32,000 nucleotides of DNA from Pyrodictium abyssi (lineage in GTDB: Archaea > Thermoproteota > Thermoprotei_A > Sulfolobales > Pyrodictiaceae), in contig NZ_AP028907.1 in NCBI RefSeq assembly GCF_036323395.1, positions 1,410,001-1,442,000 of the forward strand. Direction: 5' to 3'. The notes beneath the pieces are model-generated. The model searched no databases. It was not told the origin of the DNA and saw only the letters and a program-made list of their open reading frames with translations. Of the stretch, positions 257 to 8,026 are shown piece after piece; the first letter of the stretch is position 1, and the number at the start of each line of letters is the position of its first letter. The position numbers were made by a program, and so were the translations under genes.

Positions 257-691
257 TCAGGGAGCGGCGTCCGAGCCCCGGTTCTCCTCTATGTGGCTGG
301 CGGTGAAGGCGTAGGGTAGTAGCTCGCCGAGCCTCCATGACCGCCTCCGCCCAGTCTTGGTGGAGACCGATACTACTAGGGTCTCTGGGTCCCCGAACTC
401 GGCTAGGACCTGGCGGCAGGCGCCGCAGGGCGGGAGCGGCTCCGGGGTATCGGCTACTATGGCTACCCTGGCTATGCGACGGCGGCCCGCTGCCACCATT
501 GCCGCGACTGCTGCTCTCTCGGCACATATGGTCAGCCCGTAGCTAGCGTTCTCCACGTTGACCCCAGTGTACACTGTGCCGTCGTCGGCCTCGACGGCTG
601 CCGCTACATGCACGTTGCTGTAGGGCGCATAGCTGTTACGATGAACGCTCATGGCCTTCTCTACTAGCTTCTCGATGCCCGGGTCCTGCAC
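257..691 (-). CDS. cdd: Cytidine deaminase (small homotetrameric type)
   Basis: 144-aa ORF with the zinc-ligand signatures of the cytidine deaminase fold: TICAERAAV (C-A-E) and PPCGACRQVL (P-C-x-x-C). The size is typical for the family. Confidence 0.85.
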   Translation of the reverse strand: MQDPGIEKLVEKAMSVHRNSYAPYSNVHVAAAVEADDGTVYTGVNVENASYGLTICAERAAVAAMVAAGRRRIARVAIVADTPEPLPPCGACRQVLAEFGDPETLVVSVSTKTGRRRSWRLGELLPYAFTASHIEENRGSDAAP

Positions 692-807
692 GCTTTCTCG
701 CCCTCGTGTGTCCGGCTAGGGGTGGGCCCCGGGGTATCTCGGCTGCTACGAGGGGTTCAAAGAGGTCCGGGATATGGCCCCGGTAGAGCGGGGGCTAGAG
801 AGGCGCC

Positions 808-2262
808 TTGTCCAGCGACGGGCTGAGGACCGTTATAGGGCTCGAGGTTCACGTACAGCTAACGAGTCTCCGGACTAAGCTGTTCTGCAGCTGCAGCGCC
901 GACTACCGCGGGGCGCCGCCCAACACCCATGTCTGTCCGGTCTGTCTCGGGCTCCCCGGCGCCCTGCCCGTGGTGAACGAGGAGGCTGTCCGGAAGGCTA
1001 TCCAGGTCTGCCTCGCCGTGAATGGACATGTCGCCAGGCTTCTCCGGTTCGACCGTAAGCACTACTTCTACCCCGACCTGCCCAAGAACTACCAGATAAC
1101 CCAGTACCTTGAGCCGATATGCACTGGCGGCTACATAGAGGTAGAGACGCCGGAGGGCCCTAAGAGGATAAGGCTGAGACGAATCAACATCGAGGAGGAC
1201 CCGGGCAGGATTGTCTACCCTGGCGGCGGGCCGCTCACGAGCCCCTATGTGCTGGTCGACTACAACCGGAGCGGCGTCGCGCTCCTAGAGATAGTCACCG
1301 AGCCCGACATAGGCTCGCCAGAGGAGGCTGTAGCGTTCCTCGAGAAGCTCCGGAGTATCCTGGAACACCTGGGTGTCTGCGACTGCGGCCTCGAGGGCGC
1401 TATGCGCGTCGACGCTAACGTGAGCGTTGAGGGCGGTGAGCGCGTCGAGGTAAAGAACATAGGCAGCTTCCACGAGGTGAAGCGGGCGCTAGCCTACGAG
1501 ATCACTAGGCAGCGCGACCTACTGTTGAAGGGCAAGCCGGTGCGGCGGGAGACCCGCCACTGGGACCCGATACGCAAAGTCACGCTCCCGGCTAGGGTGA
1601 AAGAGACCGAGGAAGACTACCGCTACATGCCGGACCCCAACCTGCCGCCGGTGCCCATACCCAGGAGCCTTGTCGAGGAGCTGCGGGAGACGCTGCCAGA
1701 GCTGCCTGACGCGCGCGCTAAGAGGCTCGAGCGCGAGTACGGCCTCCGCCCCCAGGTGGCGAGGGTCCTGGTTACCAGGAAGGTTCTCGCCGACTTCTTC
1801 GAGGACGCCGCAAAGCTGTACCAGGGAAGCTACGAGAGGATGGCTAACTACCTGGTCAACGACCTGCTTAACTGGCTTAAGGACGACGACCTGGCAGGGC
1901 TCTACGAGAGGGTGAAGCCGGAGCACCTGGCGAAGCTGATGAAGCTCCTAGACTCCGGCGTTATAAGCATAAGGCAGGCAAAGGAGATGGCCGAGCACAT
2001 AGCCAAGCGCGGCGTCGACCCGGAGAAGCTTGTGGACGAGCTCGGGTTCCGCCGTATAGCGGACCCGGAGAAGCTCCGGCCGATAGTGGAGGAGGTGTTC
2101 CAGGAGAACCCTAAGGCTGTCGAGGACGCGCTCCGGAACCCCAAGGCTGTGAACTTCCTGGTAGGGATGGTTATGAGGAAGACGAGGGGGCGTGCGGACC
2201 CCGCGGTGGCGAGGAGGCTCGTAGTGGAGAAGCTTGACGAGATACGGGAGGCGGGGGCCTAG
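808..2262 (+). CDS. gatB: Asp/Glu-tRNA(Asn/Gln) amidotransferase subunit B
   Basis: 484 aa with a TTG start. It has the GatB blocks VIGLEVHVQL, KLFCSC, NTHVCPVCLGLPGALPV and FDRKHYFYPDLPKNYQITQ. The length fits GatB (about 480 aa), not GatE (about 620 aa). Confidence 0.9.
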   Translation: MSSDGLRTVIGLEVHVQLTSLRTKLFCSCSADYRGAPPNTHVCPVCLGLPGALPVVNEEAVRKAIQVCLAVNGHVARLLRFDRKHYFYPDLPKNYQITQYLEPICTGGYIEVETPEGPKRIRLRRINIEEDPGRIVYPGGGPLTSPYVLVDYNRSGVALLEIVTEPDIGSPEEAVAFLEKLRSILEHLGVCDCGLEGAMRVDANVSVEGGERVEVKNIGSFHEVKRALAYEITRQRDLLLKGKPVRRETRHWDPIRKVTLPARVKETEEDYRYMPDPNLPPVPIPRSLVEELRETLPELPDARAKRLEREYGLRPQVARVLVTRKVLADFFEDAAKLYQGSYERMANYLVNDLLNWLKDDDLAGLYERVKPEHLAKLMKLLDSGVISIRQAKEMAEHIAKRGVDPEKLVDELGFRRIADPEKLRPIVEEVFQENPKAVEDALRNPKAVNFLVGMVMRKTRGRADPAVARRLVVEKLDEIREAGA

Positions 2263-2708
2263 AGGCCTAGTCTTACTGCCTCCACGTCTATGCTCTTTGC
2301 GTAGCGCTCCGCGTCGTAGCTGAACTGGTAGGCGGCTGCTACTGGGACGACCTCTGTGTTCTCCAGCTTCTCGGCCAGCTCGCCCGCCTCGTCGACCAGC
2401 ACGTCTATGTCGCCCACGTCCATGTAGGGCTTCGCGTAGAGGTAGAACGCCACCCCTTCGAACGCTACCAGCGCGCGGGCGTAGGGTATGTCGTCCACAC
2501 CGTAGTCCTCGACTATGCGGAGCAGCCGGGCCCCCTCGAGCCTGCCGCCGAGCACGAACGCTTCGACCACGGTCCTCACGTCGGCCATGAAGCGTATGAG
2601 GCTAGGGCCCCGGGCCCCCGTAGCCTCTGCTGCCGGTGCCTCGAAGAGGCTGTGGGCCAGGCTCTCTAGCCCTATGGGCTCCTCTACTACTAGGCTCACG
2701 CGTCCCAC
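2259..2708 (-). CDS. Hypothetical protein (acidic, 149 aa)
   Basis: Open frame with a GTG start and plausible protein-like composition. It is convergent with gatB and overlaps its end by 4 nt. I recognise no motif. Confidence 0.45.
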   Translation of the reverse strand: MGRVSLVVEEPIGLESLAHSLFEAPAAEATGARGPSLIRFMADVRTVVEAFVLGGRLEGARLLRIVEDYGVDDIPYARALVAFEGVAFYLYAKPYMDVGDIDVLVDEAGELAEKLENTEVVPVAAAYQFSYDAERYAKSIDVEAVRLGL

Positions 2709-2910
2709 CCGAACACAGTATTCGTGTCCGTGGCGGGGGTTTAGCCCGAGGGGGTAGTGTAGAACCGGGTATCAACCCTGCATAGCGGGCGTCTGGGTCG
2801 CTGCTAGACCCGGGGCCCTAGCTCGTGTCATCCGGGTTATACCCGGGTATCACCTGGCCATGTCGTACCCAGAGCCGCCGACACGTGGAATAGAAAACCG
2901 GCGGAGCGGG

Positions 2911-4047
2911 CTAGGCTGGTGGGCTTGAGCTTGGCTGCACTAGGGGGAAGTCCACTATCTTCGCCTTGTAGCGCTTGCCGCGCCTCTCTATCTCCACGCT
3001 GAGGCCCATCAGGGCGTGACTCGGCTTTATGTAGGCCTGTGCTAGGCTCCGCTTCAGCACGGGGCTGTAGGCTCCACTGGTAACGTAGCCTATCTCGACG
3101 TCGTCTATGTAGACCTTGTCTCCCTGCCGCGGCACTATGCGGGCCTTCTTGCCGAGCTTAAGGCCTACACGGACCCTGGCTGCTCCACGGCGTAGCGCCT
3201 CTCGGAGTGCCTGGCAGCCTACGCAGTCCTGCTTGGGGCCGGGCTGGAATACCCACCAGTACCTGGCTTCCACTGGCGTGGTCTCCTCGTCTATCTCGTG
3301 GCCGTATAGTACGAAGCCTACCTCCATGCGTAGGCTGTCGCGCGCACCCAGCCCACAGAGCCGGCCATCAAGCTCCTTCAGCAGCTCAGCCGCCTTGAGC
3401 AGTATCTTCTCGCCTTCGCCTGCCTCTGCTATTATCTCGAACCCGTCCTCGCCTGTCCACCCGCTGCGCGATACTATGAGTGCTCGTGCACCTGCTGCTT
3501 CCAGCTCCACGTTGCGGCGGAAGCGGAGCACCTTGAGGTCGAGCATCTCGCTCGGCGCCCCTAGCTTCTTCATGAGTTCTGCCGCGCGGGGCCCTTGGAC
3601 CGCGAAGAGCACCCAGTCCATTGTGTGGTCCTCTACGCGTGCCTGGGCGCCGAGCTTCCCTATCCACTCGTCTAGCCAGCCGCGTATCTTCTCGCGGTTA
3701 ACAGCATTGGGGACGATGAGCCATCCGTCGGCGCCGAGGTTGTAGGTCATCACATCGTCCTTGAAGCCGGCGTGCTCGTTTAGGAACGCCGTCGGGCCCA
3801 CCATCATGCCTTCCTCCGACGTTATGTCGCGGGGTAGTAGGTGGTCTAGGACCCGCGTAGCGTCGCTACCGCTCAGCAGGAGACGGCCCATGTGGCTTAG
3901 GTCGAAGAACCCTACCGTCCTGCGGACGGCAAGGTGCTCCTCCATGACGCTTGTGTAGTTTATCGGCGCCTCCCATCCAGCGAACTCGCCGAACTGCGCG
4001 CCGAGGCTCTTGTGGACGTCGTATAGGGGGATGCGCAGCTTAGCCAA
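2911..4047 (-). CDS. gcvT: Aminomethyltransferase, glycine cleavage system T protein
   Basis: 378 aa with a TTG start. It has typical GcvT blocks: PLYDVH..GA.FGEFAGWE.PI.Y, FDLSHMGRL, SRSGWTGEDGFEI and GLGARDSLRME. Confidence 0.9.
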   Translation of the reverse strand: MAKLRIPLYDVHKSLGAQFGEFAGWEAPINYTSVMEEHLAVRRTVGFFDLSHMGRLLLSGSDATRVLDHLLPRDITSEEGMMVGPTAFLNEHAGFKDDVMTYNLGADGWLIVPNAVNREKIRGWLDEWIGKLGAQARVEDHTMDWVLFAVQGPRAAELMKKLGAPSEMLDLKVLRFRRNVELEAAGARALIVSRSGWTGEDGFEIIAEAGEGEKILLKAAELLKELDGRLCGLGARDSLRMEVGFVLYGHEIDEETTPVEARYWWVFQPGPKQDCVGCQALREALRRGAARVRVGLKLGKKARIVPRQGDKVYIDDVEIGYVTSGAYSPVLKRSLAQAYIKPSHALMGLSVEIERRGKRYKAKIVDFPLVQPSSSPPA

Positions 4048-4624: not shown

Positions 4625-4800
4625 GGCTTGCAGCCCTCATACAAGAGTAGCCCCACTCTTGGCCCAGTATAAACCTTTAGGCCCACCAGCCTCCCACTGC
4701 TACACGGGCCCGACAACTACAAAAGAACCCTGCAAAGCGCTGTGCTAGACAATGGAGGGGCAGCCGGGTCGTCTAGCGGCCAAGGATGCGGGGCTTTGGA

Positions 4801-4824
4801 TAGCGGCCCTCTACCCCCTACCCC
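4801..4824 (+). repeat. 5' arm of the 24-bp intron-terminal inverted repeat (TAGCGGCCCTCTACCCCCTACCCC)
   Basis: It pairs position by position with 5520..5497, giving 23 Watson-Crick pairs and one U.G pair at 4810:5511. Confidence 0.9.
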
Positions 4825-4830
4825 GCTTTC

Positions 4831-5428
4831 CTACCTCGTGCTGCTCCTAGCCCGTCTTGCCATCTCGCTAGCCACCTTGTAGGAGCCGCCCAGCAAGTCT
4901 AGCCTGTTGAAGATAAACACTCGATACTTGCCTCCATGAAGATAGTAGTTGCAGCTGGCCCCTATCAGGCTACAAACACTCACCACGAGACTTGCTATCT
5001 TCTTTGAGGCTGTAGTTATGGCTACGCGGAAATAACCGCCACGCCTCCGCTCAATGTTTCCATCAGAGTCTATAAGCCCTTCAACGACGCCTATTAGGGC
5101 CTCTAGAGGGACTCCCTCTACGCCTTCCTCAAGAACCCTTGAGATAAACCTAGTCAGCGAGAACACTAGGCATTTACCACACACTGATACGACTACCTCG
5201 CCACCCTGCATAAACACGTTAGCATTGAATCCGAGGGATGCAATCACGTAAACAAGCTCCTTCAAGATCTCCGGACTCGTGAGGCCCGAGAAAAAGCCTT
5301 ATCCGGTAGTCATAACGCTTTCTATCTATATAGATACTGCCGTCGCCTAGACAGAACCCTGCAAGGTAGCCCCATTTACGCCAACCAACTCTACTAGTTA
5401 GCTCCTCGTAGTCACCACGACACTGCAT
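4831..5428 (-). pseudogene. Two-motif (single-chain) LAGLIDADG homing endonuclease, antisense to the tRNA, interrupted by a +1 frameshift
   Basis: The N-terminal frame starts at ATG 5428 and reads [46 protein letters not shown] (motif 1). The C-terminal frame is open from 5298 and ends at stop 4831; it contains ...EALIGVVEGLIDSDGNIERRRGGYFRVAI... (motif 2). The frames join at a T5 run (plus-strand A5 at 5291..5295). Deleting one T gives a protein of about 198 aa, close to I-DmoI in size. Confidence 0.8.
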
Positions 5429-5456
5429 AGGTCCCGAGGAATCGTGTAGAGAACGG

Positions 5457-5471
5457 TAATAATACAAATAA
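5457..5471. promoter_or_regulatory. AT-rich TATA-like block (TAATAATACAAATAA), candidate bidirectional promoter inside the intron
   Basis: This is the only strongly AT-rich block in the intron. Its centre (about 5464) is about 36 nt upstream of the HEG ATG (5428) on the minus strand. It is also about 33 nt upstream of the 3' helix arm (5497) on the plus strand. Confidence 0.45.
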
Positions 5472-5496
5472 GCTCCCCAGAGGGAACACGAGGTAT

Positions 5497-5520
5497 GGGG
5501 TAGGGGGTAGGGGGCCGCTA
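5497..5520 (+). repeat. 3' arm of the 24-bp intron-terminal inverted repeat (GGGGTAGGGGGTAGGGGGCCGCTA)
   Basis: Reverse complement of 4801..4824 except for one G.U position. It lies immediately 5' of the BHB central helix. Confidence 0.9.
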
Positions 5521-5558
5521 GAAGAGCCCCCGTGACCGGGGTTCGAATCCCCGCCCGG

Positions 5559-6323
5559 CTACCATCTCCCTCCAACCCGGCTAGCTCTGCCCCCCTCTAG
5601 CTCCTCTATGAGCGACCCCACTCCGTCTAGCGTGTACTCGCTGGGGTAGAGGGCTTCGGGGTAGCCTAGCTCCTTTAGCTTCTTAGCCGTGGTCGGGCCT
5701 ATGGCTACTGGCTTGAAGCCCGGGCTGCCTGGGCTCGGGTAGTGCTTGGTGAAGGCCTCGGCTATGCTGGGGCTCGTGAACACCACGTAGTCGAACATGT
5801 CGGCTATCCTCGCAGCCGCTGAGGCCATCCGGTCTAGGACAACGACCCGGTATAGAGGGATCTCCACGGCCTCTATTCCGTGGCTCTCTAGGCCGCGTAC
5901 TAGGTCTGGCACAGCCTTCTCGGAGCGGGGTAGCAGGACGCGGCGCGGGCGCAGAGATGCTAGCTCTTCTGCCAGTGCTGCGCCACGGTATTCCCTCGGC
6001 ACGTAGTCCGTGCGGACTCCGTGCTGCTCAAGCACCTGGCGGGTCTTGGGCCCGACCGCTGCTACCCGGATCCTTCCCTGCGTCTGTAACACGCGTATCT
6101 TCTCGAGCAAGCTGGCTAGGAGCCTGGGGGCACGGGGACTCGTGAATACTACCCAGTCGCTCTTCTCGAGTTCTTTCTCCACTTTCTCGGCTGCCCCGGG
6201 TACTGGCTCTACATCGATCACGGGGATGTGGGCTACTACCGCTATCTCGGCGAGCCGGCCGGGCTCTGAGCCGGGCGGGCGTAGGAGGAGGACGTGGGGC
6301 CGCCTGTCTAGCTTAGGCGCCAA
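5559..6323 (-). CDS. hemD: Uroporphyrinogen-III synthase
   Basis: The C-terminal 254 aa of the 397-aa track ORF look like HemD: two repeated half-domains with VVFTSP motifs ([10 protein letters not shown] and [13 protein letters not shown]) and [16 protein letters not shown]. The upstream part of the track ORF is an out-of-frame shadow of cobA. The start is placed at in-frame TTG 6323, just before HVLLLRPPG, and is uncertain. Confidence 0.75.
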
Positions 6324-7066
6324 AGCTTGTCCCTCAGCTCCACCGTGTGGCCGAAGATTATGAGCGCTGGAGGCTGTACACCTGCCCGACGGGCTTTCTC
6401 GACGATGTCCCGTAGCCTGCCTGCCACCACCCGCTGCTCTGGGGTCGTGGCTTTCTCGACTATTGCTACTGGGAGGTCGGGGTCTACGCCCTCCTCTAGC
6501 ATCTCTCTCACTATGTTCTCTAGGTTGCCTACACCCATTACCACTACTAGTGTATCCACCGTCTTCATTATTTTGCCGTAGTGCACCATTTTCCTGTCCT
6601 TGTCGGGAGCCTCCCTGCCCGTGGCTACCGCGAAGCTCGACGCTATGCCGCGGCTGGTGACTGGTATACCCGCGTAGGCCGCGCCCGCGATTGCACTGGT
6701 CAGGCCGGGGACAACTTCGCACTCTACTCCGTGCTCGCGGAGGTAGATGCACTCCTCTTCGCCACGTCCAAAGACGTAGGGGTCGCCGCCGTGAAGGCGT
6801 ACAACCTTTTTGCCTTCACACGCCTTCTCCAGAAGCAGCTGGTTGATCTCCTCCTGGGTCATCGTGTGTGCGCCGGGCTTCTTACCAGCGTAGATAAGCT
6901 CTGCCCCGGGCTTAGCGTAGTCTAGCAGCTCTTTCGCAACTAGCCGGTCGTATACTATGACGTCGGCTTGTTGTATGAGGCGTAGCCCCTTCACCGTTAT
7001 AAGCTCGGGGTCACCAGGCCCGGCGCCGACTACGTATACGCGTCCCCCTCTACACTCTCTGACCAA
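6308..7066 (-). CDS. cobA: Uroporphyrinogen-III C-methyltransferase (SUMT)
   Basis: 252 aa with the tetrapyrrole methylase signatures VYVVGAGPGDPELITVKGLRLIQQADVIVYD and RLHGGDPYVFGRG. Confidence 0.9.
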   Translation of the reverse strand: MVRECRGGRVYVVGAGPGDPELITVKGLRLIQQADVIVYDRLVAKELLDYAKPGAELIYAGKKPGAHTMTQEEINQLLLEKACEGKKVVRLHGGDPYVFGRGEEECIYLREHGVECEVVPGLTSAIAGAAYAGIPVTSRGIASSFAVATGREAPDKDRKMVHYGKIMKTVDTLVVVMGVGNLENIVREMLEEGVDPDLPVAIVEKATTPEQRVVAGRLRDIVEKARRAGVQPPALIIFGHTVELRDKLWRLS

Positions 7067-7117
7067 AACTGGCCAGCACCCCGCTCCTAGGACTCTAGGA
7101 CCCCCGGGACAGGAGGG

Positions 7118-8026
7118 CTAGAGAGTGATACCCGCCGAGGCTGCTTTGGCCCTTAGCTCTAGGGCGGCGTCTATGCCGAGCTGTGCCGGCCTCTCCGGGT
7201 CGCCCTCCACGGTGACGTCTACCCTCTTGCTGCCGTCCGGCGACGCTACTGCAGCGTGTATGTAGAGTATGCCTTTTTCTATCCAGGCGTAGGCTCCTAG
7301 CGGGGTGTGGCAGCCGCCTCCCGCGTATGCTAGGAAGGCTCTCTCAGCCCTAGCCATTGTCATGGCTTCTTCGTCGGTCGCGTCCTCGAGCAGCGGTAGT
7401 ATGTCGCCGCGGCTGTATAGGGTGTAGACTCCTAGTATCCCCTGGCCAGGCGCTGGAGGCAGTACGTCGGGCGGTATACGCCAGTACTCTATGTCTAGGC
7501 CTAGCCGCTGGAGCCCTGCTTCAGCGAGTATTATGGCATCGTACATTCCCTGCTGTAGCTTGCGCAGCCTCGTGTCAACGTTGCCGCGCAGCGGCTTGAA
7601 CACGAGGTCGCTGCGGACCCGCTTCAGCATGGCGACACGCCGGGCGCTCGACGAGCCGACTACTGCGCCGGCTGGTAGGTCCCATATCGTTTTGGGGCTC
7701 CCGCGGGTGACAAGCACGTCGAAGGGCGAGGCTCGGGGCGGCGTCATTGCTAGTACGAGGCCGGGGCTAACCTCACTCGGCACGTCCTTGAGGCTGTGTA
7801 CTGCTATGTCTGCCCGGCCTTCTAGTACTGCTAGGTTTACCTCCTTCTCGAATAGCCCCTTACCGCCTATCATCGTGAAGGGCTTGTCCTGGTGTATATC
7901 ACCTCGTGTCTTGACTATTACTAGCTCGAACTCTACCTCGGGGTGCCGCTTCCTGATCTCGTTGAGCGCGAGCTGGGTCTGGGCCAGGCTTAGCTTGCTA
8001 CCTCGGGTCGCTACTCGTATCTTCAT
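7118..8026 (-). CDS. hemC: Porphobilinogen deaminase (hydroxymethylbilane synthase)
   Basis: 302 aa with MKIRVATRGSKLSLAQT, GGKGLFEKE, DIAVHSLKDVP and the cofactor-Cys region GGGCHTPLGAY. Its ATG overlaps the hemL stop (ATGA). Confidence 0.92.
   Translation of the reverse strand: MKIRVATRGSKLSLAQTQLALNEIRKRHPEVEFELVIVKTRGDIHQDKPFTMIGGKGLFEKEVNLAVLEGRADIAVHSLKDVPSEVSPGLVLAMTPPRASPFDVLVTRGSPKTIWDLPAGAVVGSSSARRVAMLKRVRSDLVFKPLRGNVDTRLRKLQQGMYDAIILAEAGLQRLGLDIEYWRIPPDVLPPAPGQGILGVYTLYSRGDILPLLEDATDEEAMTMARAERAFLAYAGGGCHTPLGAYAWIEKGILYIHAAVASPDGSKRVDVTVEGDPERPAQLGIDAALELRAKAASAGITL

Follow-up and report, generated by a model that had tools for sequence, protein, structure and literature searches.

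In archaea, introns with a bulge-helix-bulge (BHB) splicing signal and a gene for a LAGLIDADG homing endonuclease are known from rRNA, and include those of I-DmoI (23S rRNA of Desulfurococcus mobilis), I-PorI, I-ApeI, and I-Tsp061I/2dch (16S rRNA of Thermoproteales). In the accounts of Nawrocki et al. 2018 and Jay and Inskeep 2015, such introns bearing homing endonuclease genes (HEGs) are placed in rRNA genes only. Here, an element of this kind is reported in the tRNA-Gln(UUG) gene of Pyrodictium abyssi, within a stretch of 32,000 nucleotides (nt) from contig NZ_AP028907.1 of RefSeq assembly GCF_036323395.1 (positions 1,410,001 to 1,442,000 of the forward strand). The whole of this 32-kb stretch is called the window, and coordinates refer to it unless another locus is named; labels such as L089 and P0009 denote loci and proteins compared with it. 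The locus is very probably a functional tRNA-Gln(UUG) gene that carries a mobile BHB intron at position 37/38, with the endonuclease broken in this organism.

The intron resembles the archaeal rRNA introns in its BHB splicing signal, its size class (about 600-750 nt), its predicted monomeric double-LAGLIDADG enzyme, and a presence/absence polymorphism typical of homing. It differs from them in that the host is a tRNA and the site is the canonical position 37/38, and the endonuclease gene is antisense in all 22 tRNA-Gln members of the family, whereas it is in the sense orientation in the 16S rRNA relatives. With canonical archaeal tRNA introns it shares position 37/38, the geometry of a BHB between two helices h and h' (hBHBh'), and the enzymes expected to process it, but its length is about 10-50 times theirs, and it contains a protein-coding gene together with a putative promoter; short introns of 12-61 nt are found at this very site of tRNA-Gln(UUG) in at least about 52 of the genomes scanned. 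According to two summaries of Fujishima et al. 2010 (PMC4033280 and PMC10714607), the transposing tRNA introns of Thermoproteales are mobile BHB introns and a source of intron gain. The present introns are likewise tRNA BHB introns that appear to behave as mobile elements; those of Thermoproteales are short, lack an open reading frame (ORF), spread between tRNA species, and move by a mechanism that is not known, whereas here one site of one tRNA is occupied and an endonuclease is encoded that would supply a mechanism.

Further parallels lie outside this group. Bacterial and organellar group I introns of tRNA genes (PMC3984707) are also located in the anticodon loop, and some of them are mobile and carry homing endonuclease genes, yet they are self-splicing, whereas the present intron has no ribozyme signal and is predicted to be spliced by proteins through its BHB. 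Nuclear rDNA group I introns with antisense endonuclease genes (PMC9548176) share the opposite-strand arrangement and the need for independent expression; those introns, however, are eukaryotic, with His-Cys box enzymes, group I ribozymes, and rRNA hosts, and they are the only precedent found for an antisense HEG. Split tRNA genes (Nanoarchaeum, Caldivirga, Staphylothermus, Aeropyrum, and Thermosphaera) are described in PMC3218864 with a comparable long GC-rich helix and a BHB at 37/38; in P. abyssi, on the other hand, the two halves are collinear, on one strand, and 727 nt apart, which is most simply read as one transcript.

The word "homing" is absent from two reviews of tRNA genes (PMC4090602 and PMC4033280), mobile archaeal tRNA introns were still shown without an encoded protein in a 2023 meeting report (PMC10714607), and Chan et al. 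2011 (PMC3218864) lists split and permuted tRNAs and no long tRNA-Gln intron in this clade. In the searchable literature, reports that combine a tRNA intron or BHB with a homing endonuclease in archaea concerned rRNA introns, group I introns, and organelles only, and an endonuclease-bearing BHB intron in a tRNA gene was not found, although an earlier mention in subscription-only papers is possible. This agrees with the initial annotation of the locus, made from the sequence, which had assigned ORF-bearing introns of this size to archaeal rRNA rather than tRNA genes. The endonuclease gene, its antisense orientation, its frameshift, and the apparent restriction of the element family to one site of one tRNA go beyond that annotation. 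What is new is not the type of element, an HEG-bearing archaeal BHB intron, but its tRNA host and the inversion of its gene.

The Interrupted tRNA-Gln(UUG) Gene

The gene consists of the following parts:

4762-4799, plus strand: 5' exon of tRNA-Gln(UUG), nt 1-37, with the anticodon UUG at 4795-4797 (ARAGORN on the spliced product; 100% identical to L089 2637-2674)
4800-5526, plus strand: BHB intron, 727 nt, at canonical position 37/38 (exact empty site in the syntenic loci L089 and L070)
5527-5564, plus strand: 3' exon of tRNA-Gln(UUG), nt 38-73, plus the encoded CCA at 5562-5564 (ARAGORN on the spliced product; synteny with L089)

The initial annotation had assembled a 76-nt tRNA-Gln(UUG) with an encoded CCA from these exons and had placed a 727-nt intron at 37/38; both proposals stand. 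ARAGORN calls the joined exons tRNA-Gln(ttg), 76 nt long, with a 7-base-pair (bp) acceptor stem, a 4-nt variable loop, and the encoded CCA, and it makes the same call for the intronless orthologs (L089 and others), relative to which the window exons carry no substitutions. Synteny supplies the strongest single argument for the insertion. In L089, a contig of a Pyrodictiaceae metagenome-assembled genome (MAG), positions 2637-2674 match window positions 4762-4799 at 100%, and position 2674 then runs straight into window 5526-8026; the genes upstream align to the window as well, and L070 shows the same syntenic empty site. The segment 4800-5526 is therefore an insertion into an ordinary tRNA gene, exactly between nt 37 and 38. 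The exon sequence recurs in at least 120 genomes, and the interruption of a tRNA-Gln(UUG) gene by an intron is far beyond chance. In addition, the intron looks foreign to its surroundings in composition, with a GC content of 52% against about 60-65% in the flanks (about 62% regionally). Another tRNA-Gln(UUG) was not seen within the window; should the genome contain no other copy, the cell would depend on splicing of this intron, as the initial annotation pointed out.

The ARAGORN check that had been suggested for this locus gave a divided answer. The joined 76-mer is recognized as Gln(ttg), whereas the unspliced gene was missed by ARAGORN with default settings and by Rfam at the gathering threshold. 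When long introns were allowed, ARAGORN recovered the gene ends (4762-5564) with a splice site off by 2-3 nt and the label "Leu(taa)". This call, tRNA-Leu(taa) i(37,724), was rejected because a long variable arm is lacking, the splice site misfits the BHB, and the intronless orthologs are Gln(ttg). Homologous loci are mislabelled in the same way, with Ser, Pro, Leu, or Stop anticodons (the window locus, L001, and L132-L142), since the BHB plays no part in the program's choice of splice site. The default intron-length limit of tRNAscan-SE would likewise miss a gene with a 727-nt intron. There is thus a blind spot in annotation, in that affected genomes would seem to be without tRNA-Gln(UUG).

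The Splice Motif and Its Conservation

The exon-intron junctions are predicted to form the following structure:

4789-4793, pairing with 5528-5532, plus strand: anticodon stem, 5' strand of helix h (fold; invariant in the family alignment)
4794-4797, pairing with 5521-5524, plus strand: 5' strand of the central 4-bp helix H, nt 32-35 (pairs 4/4 in 21 of 21 distinct introns)
4798-4800, plus strand: 5' bulge of 3 nt, G4798/G4799/A4800, with predicted cleavage after G4799 (GGN in every family member)
5525-5527, plus strand: 3' bulge of 3 nt, A5525/G5526/C5527, with predicted cleavage after G5526 (A[AG]C in every family member)
4801-4825, pairing with 5496-5520, plus strand: 5' strand of the outer helix h', 25 bp (fold and covariation)
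5496-5520, plus strand: 3' strand of the outer helix h' (fold and covariation)
4832-4840, pairing with 5487-5495, plus strand: distal helix, 9 bp, overlapping the endonuclease stop codon (mini-substrate fold of the window sequence alone)

Two 3-nt bulges on opposite strands, with a 4-bp helix between them and flanking helices h and h', define membership in the archaeal BHB introns, and all of these elements are present. The central helix is composed of C4794-G5524, U4795-A5523, U4796-A5522, and U4797.G5521, and the outer helix (4801-4825:5496-5520) folds into 25 bp with 0 mismatches and two G.U pairs. In this canonical register, the partners of nt 32-35 are the four nucleotides of the intron just before its last two. 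The geometry had been worked out in the initial annotation, and every pairing and bulge in it was upheld, the register being found with 4/4 pairs and 3-nt bulges in all 21 distinct introns. Symmetric cleavage is predicted to yield a 76-nt tRNA-Gln(ttg) that matches the intronless ortholog L089.

Covariation was assessed in a gap-free junction alignment of 78 columns from nine diverged members of the family. The proportion of paired cells was 95.8%, compared with 50-58% when the partners were slid by 1-3 columns; compensatory double changes were present at 21 of the 23 outer-helix pairs tested in the nine sequences, and none of 500 column shuffles reached the observed covariation values. The covariation indicates that the RNA structure is under selection, which is hard to square with a dead gene.

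The distal 9-bp helix is perfect and is set off by a small internal loop; with it, the terminal stem reaches about 34 bp. On the side away from the stop codon, it overlaps the region upstream of a TATA-like element described below.

The Antisense Endonuclease Gene

The intron carries the following features on its minus strand:

4831-5428, minus strand: gene of a double-LAGLIDADG (I-DmoI-like) homing endonuclease, frameshifted, ATG at 5428-5426 and stop codon at 4833-4831 (ORFs in two frames; Pfam)
5271-5274, minus strand: frameshift site CCGG, with one extra base relative to the intact gene in L181 (protein and DNA alignment)
5457-5471, minus strand: AT-rich TATA-like element TTATTTGTATTATTA, 28 nt upstream of the endonuclease ATG, a putative antisense promoter (read from the sequence)

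From 4800 to 5526, the intron is made up of A4800, a 25-nt helix strand, 5 nt, the 598-nt antisense gene, about 67 nt, the second 25-nt helix strand, and 6 nt. Two overlapping minus-strand ORFs, 5219-5575 (118 aa) and 4831-5265 (144 aa), contain one LAGLIDADG motif each; the public annotation comprises the 144-aa fragment alone, as a "hypothetical protein" (PABY_15560, BES81989.1). The reading frame is thus not intact in P. abyssi, being broken by a 1-nt insertion into two fragments. An intact relative, P0009, is encoded in the metagenomic locus L181, whose intron has the same length, is 90.3% identical, and has an uninterrupted ORF. Between the two introns, the internal insertions and deletions are an extra G at 5273 and a missing T near 4846, with no others, and dropping any one base of the CCGG gives a protein of 198 aa, 176 of which are identical to P0009. 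A frameshift at the A5 run at 5291-5295 had been considered and was rejected, because P0009 and L181 put the lesion at CCGG 5271-5274. The P. abyssi endonuclease gene is, judging from its sequence, probably inactive.

In Pfam, the repaired ORF matched LAGLIDADG_3 with 35.2 bits (cut-off 22.5) and Hom_end with 25.7 bits (cut-off 21.1); the ORF scored had been repaired at the A5 run and is wrong at aa 47-53, and the best-matched residues (113-156) lie outside that stretch. Both LAGLIDADG motifs are conserved in the family, the second being VEGLIDSDGN (LIGVVEGLIDSDGN), and the catalytic acidic residues at their ends, D29 and D122 in P0002 numbering, do not vary in the family alignment, in which the window row is wrong at aa 47-53 owing to the same A5-run repair. 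The family profile gave weak matches to I-DmoI and to the Thermoproteus rRNA-intron enzyme 2dch. An AlphaFold2 (AF2) model was built of an intact homolog, P0002, not of the window copy, and is unaffected by the faulty repair; it has a predicted local distance difference test (pLDDT) score of 92.5 and a predicted template modelling (pTM) score of 0.90, and shows a tandem alpha-beta-beta-alpha-beta-beta-alpha fold. In a Foldseek search with this model, the top 32 matches in the Protein Data Bank (PDB) were all I-DmoI, with E-values of about 7e-9 (best 6.6e-9) and TM-scores of 0.66-0.72 over about 180 aligned columns. On these grounds, the enzyme is predicted to be a monomeric two-domain LAGLIDADG endonuclease of the I-DmoI type.

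Since the gene is antisense, the intron RNA cannot serve as its message, and a promoter of its own is required. The TATA-like element would be this promoter, giving a short leader, and in other members of the family comparable AT-rich elements precede the ATG by 25-40 nt, for example TTTATAAA in L004 and L050.

Distribution and Evolution of the Intron Family

Counting the window, 26 loci have yielded at least 22 distinct introns of the family, with lengths of 654-745 nt. All protein homologs found with an identity of 42% or above are encoded antisense within an intron of 654-745 nt at position 37/38 of tRNA-Gln(UUG), and the exons of the host genes are near-identical across the family. The hosts are Pyrodictiaceae, Thermodiscus, Candidatus Calypsonella, MAGs of Desulfurococcaceae or Desulfurococcales, and vent or hot-spring metagenomes. 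Among the close homologs found, the element family thus appears to be confined to one site of one tRNA.

The ORF is intact in most members, and frameshifts at differing positions occur in four lineages (4/22), namely, the window, L127, L050/L142, and L147, the lesion of L050 being reproduced in an independent assembly (L142). The ratio of nonsynonymous to synonymous substitution rates (dN/dS) is 0.15-0.26 in five close pairs, and 0.23 for the window and L181. These values indicate that the gene has been kept by purifying selection and that the lesion in P. abyssi is recent.

The states of the tRNA-Gln(UUG) site were surveyed by a genome scan with the 5' exon as query and one genome per species, which gave at least 120 loci; these were classified together with eight earlier loci. 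Intronless alleles numbered at least 33, and alleles with short introns (12-97 nt) at least about 52. Introns longer than 100 nt were present in at least 16 loci, 13 of them long (654-745 nt) and 3 of them mid-size (146-175 nt); eight of the 13 long alleles were the earlier loci, so the scan itself yielded at least five long and at least three mid-size introns. A further 27 cases were unresolved. In Pyrodictiaceae, the orthologous locus occurs in three forms: L070, L089, and L094 are intronless, L039 has an intron of 42 nt, and the window, L127, and L181 have the long one. Mobility is accordingly marked by a presence/absence polymorphism with precise boundaries, by a single site in diverse hosts, and by an endonuclease gene that is selected and sporadically decaying.

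Several shorter introns retain the ends of the long ones. The 169-nt intron of L082 shares both termini with the long introns of L085 and L127 (92-93% identity over 27-30 nt) and does not share their interior. In the introns of L018/L096 (146 nt), L035 (37 nt), and L112 (38 nt), the ends are still of the ATAGCGG...CCGCTAGAAGAG type and an ORF is lacking, and the terminal sequences ATAGCGGC...GCCGCTAGAAGAG of the long introns are preserved in mid-size and mini introns. These similarities fit, and do not prove, an origin of the mid-size and mini introns as internal-deletion derivatives of long ones, and they suggest mobile ancestors for some of the short canonical tRNA introns. Taken together, the intronless, short-intron, deletion-derivative, and long-intron alleles appear to represent a full homing cycle.

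Two MAGs each contain two intronless tRNA-Gln(UUG) exon matches on different contigs and with different flanks, L081 and L093 in the Sulfolobales MAG KC_007, and L049 and L094 in Pyrodictium sp. SZUA-1443. These pairs could be a true duplicate, strain heterogeneity, or a binning artefact, and both copies in SZUA-1443 lie at contig ends.

Outside tRNA genes, the nearest endonucleases (30-34% identity) belong to sense-oriented ORFs within introns of archaeal 16S rRNA genes (L144-L156), the rRNA context being identified by Rfam for L144 only and suggested by flanking rRNA motifs for L145-L156. In L144, the small-subunit (SSU) rRNA spans 367-3092 and the endonuclease ORF 1474-2061, and these introns sit near a region that has GAACCTTACC and GGTGCATGG on its two sides. 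Relatives at a greater distance (22-33% identity; L129-L131, L157, L160, L163, and L171) lie within open frames of about 625-930 aa, which suggests that they are inteins. Given these sense-oriented rRNA-intron and intein relatives, the tRNA-Gln clade forms a distinct branch of the archaeal intron/intein LAGLIDADG radiation, which appears to be marked by its host gene and its inverted coding strand. Some of the intein-type host frames resemble IMP-dehydrogenase or ribonucleotide reductase by eye. Three of these loci (L129-L131) are large viral contigs, one of them labelled GVMAG; a viral vector for the element was considered and rejected, because on viral contigs the endonuclease profile gave distant (30-33%) intein-type relatives only.

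Proposed Mechanism

In the proposed scheme, a single precursor of about 803 nt would be transcribed from the tRNA promoter, and the ends of the intron would pair in the GC-rich 25-bp helix, clamping the splice sites as an hBHBh' substrate. The tRNA splicing endonuclease (EndA) would then cut after G4799 and after G5526, and an RtcB-type ligase would join the exons and probably circularize the intron. These splicing steps are the established pathway of archaeal tRNA and rRNA introns, and splicing of the present intron, in cis from a single transcript, is expected by analogy with it.

As for homing, the endonuclease, expressed from its own TATA-like promoter, would cut an intronless tRNA-Gln(UUG) gene at the anticodon-loop site, and repair would copy the intron into it. 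The target would be the intronless anticodon-arm DNA, which consists of GCGGGGCTTTGG and CCCCCGTGACC on the two sides of the insertion point and is invariant across hosts. Any intron at 37/38, short ones included, would disrupt this target and thereby confer immunity to cleavage. After the 1-nt insertion broke the endonuclease gene in P. abyssi, the intron would have become a stranded passenger that still must be spliced.

A wider proposal can be put forward tentatively, although we regard it as rather unlikely in its full extent: that archaeal tRNA genes do gain introns through the homing of BHB introns with endonuclease genes, and that the present locus family keeps the whole life cycle of such an intron. 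In this cycle, an empty anticodon-loop site would be invaded, the antisense endonuclease gene would decay by frameshift, and internal deletion would leave introns of 146-169 nt and about 37 nt with their ATAGCGG...CCGCTAGAAGAG termini kept, so that many ordinary short 37/38 introns would be relics that also shield the site from renewed cleavage. In some lineages, rearrangement across the long helix would finally give rise to split tRNA-Gln(UUG) genes. The 3' half may already be transcribed on its own from the promoter of the antisense gene, in which case the long intron would stand as a direct intermediate on the way from intron-containing to split tRNA genes.

Alternative Explanations

Several points weigh against a functional gene with a mobile intron. 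Splicing and antisense transcription are deduced from the sequence, the promoter is assigned from AT-rich elements, and the single-copy status of the gene in the genome is judged from the 32-kb window. Convergent transcription of a highly expressed tRNA gene and the endonuclease gene might interfere with either of them. A single-sequence minimum free energy (MFE) fold favors a junction register whose 3' side is displaced by 2 nt; this register was rejected, since it gives 4/4 pairs in 16 of the 21 distinct introns, against 21 of 21 for the canonical one. The broken ORF, moreover, makes current mobility in P. abyssi unlikely, unless the frameshift at 5271-5274 is an error of sequencing or assembly, the endonuclease being intact and active and the intron still mobile. 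The lesion is a single-base difference in an ORF that is otherwise undamaged and 89% identical to the intact P0009, and with a dN/dS of 0.23 between the window and L181, any inactivation must have been very recent. Against an error, the site is CCGG and contains no long homopolymer, independent frameshifts are common in the family (4/22), with one of them repeated in two assemblies, and the deposited annotation likewise calls the 144-aa fragment only. An error is rather unlikely, and it would alter the statement on current mobility and nothing else.

The remaining alternatives concern the nature of the gene itself. If the two halves were a split tRNA gene, transcribed separately, annealed through the 25-bp helix, and trans-spliced, the endonuclease gene would simply lie between them. 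The AT-rich element at 5457-5471, which on the plus strand precedes the 3' helix strand (5496) by about 25 nt and could act in both directions, would suit this arrangement, as would the T-runs that directly follow the 5' helix strand in some members (e.g., L001 and L052). It would also be in keeping with about 17 other genomes in which this 5' half has a similar GC-rich tail and the locus, as fetched (1.6-8 kb), contains no 3' half. The window, on the contrary, has no oligo-T terminator after 4825, its two halves are collinear on one strand, in order and 727 nt apart, and rRNA BHB introns of equal size are known to be cis-spliced. Adjacent split halves do have a precedent in tRNA-Asp of Aeropyrum and Thermosphaera (PMC3218864), and on balance a split gene is improbable here. 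A dead gene, in which a mobile element was inserted while the cell uses another tRNA-Gln(UUG) copy, would find a parallel in the two scanned MAGs that carry two exon matches each (L049/L094 and L081/L093). Its exons, however, are unsubstituted relative to the intronless orthologs, the BHB and the 25-bp helix are upheld by compensatory changes across at least 22 diverged introns, as expected only if splicing is selected, and many hosts retain the architecture with endonuclease genes that have diverged to 42-55% identity, so that this explanation is very improbable. The chance of a self-splicing group I or group II intron, or of an integrated element, instead of a BHB intron is smaller still, to the point of being negligible. 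LAGLIDADG-bearing group I introns are known from rRNA genes of archaea (PMC6125680) and from tRNA genes of bacteria (PMC3984707), but in the present intron no Rfam match was obtained at the gathering threshold or at E<=1, the antisense ORF, the promoter region, and the terminal helix fill nearly the whole length and leave no room for a ribozyme core, and the termini form a covarying BHB. The absence of direct repeats or attachment-site (att) duplications, which follows from the exons being complementary halves, also argues against an integrated element. A group I intron or C/D-box cargo had been looked for in a permissive Rfam scan and was rejected, the scan giving only a spurious tRNA-like mascRNA match on the 3' exon.

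Significance

It is still an open question how introns enter the tRNA genes of archaea, and the family offers a concrete and testable mechanism, endonuclease-driven homing into the anticodon loop, for which the empty, occupied, decaying, and deleted states are all present in sequenced genomes. HEG-bearing BHB introns are not restricted to rRNA genes, and the antisense HEG is a new arrangement in archaea, which forces independent expression of the endonuclease. In addition, the intact homologs are predicted thermostable endonucleases with a candidate target of about 20 bp and might serve as tools.

Candidate Split Genes and Neighboring Features

In about 17 genomes, a complete 5' half of tRNA-Gln(UUG) up to G37 is followed by a GC-rich tail of 15-19 nt, most commonly ACCTCGGCCGCCGCCCCC (L008, L020, L031, L033, L037, L044, L046, L055, L061, L064, L067, L095, L101, L107, L108, L122, and L125). 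The hosts are MAGs labelled Sulfolobales, Acidilobaceae, or Desulfurococcaceae, as well as Desulfurococcaceae archaeon AG1. Neither a 3' half, on either strand, nor an endonuclease remnant was found in the fetched loci (1.6-8 kb) of these genomes, which are candidates for split, trans-spliced tRNA-Gln(UUG) genes at 37/38. In the table of split tRNAs in PMC3218864, a split Gln(UUG) is listed for Nanoarchaeum only, at 32/33. The GC-rich tails are similar to the 5' strand of the outer helix in the long introns, and a possible pattern for the 3' half, with the complement of the tail before it, is exemplified by GGGGGCGGCGGCCGAGG-N4-8-CCCCCGTGACCGGGGTTCGAATCC. In five of the roughly 17 genomes, the 5' half is followed on the same strand by the same ORF of about 355-360 aa, which is FEN-1 flap endonuclease-like by eye.

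Downstream of the tRNA gene in the window, a convergent minus-strand ORF (5559-6752) has its stop codon at 5561-5559, overlapping the acceptor-end nucleotides of the tRNA (5559-5564). The ORF is uroporphyrinogen-III-synthase-like, with a Pfam HEM4 match in the L127 ortholog. The flank CAACCCGGCT near the acceptor end of the tRNA is kept in the Pyrodictiaceae orthologs and was used as a synteny marker.

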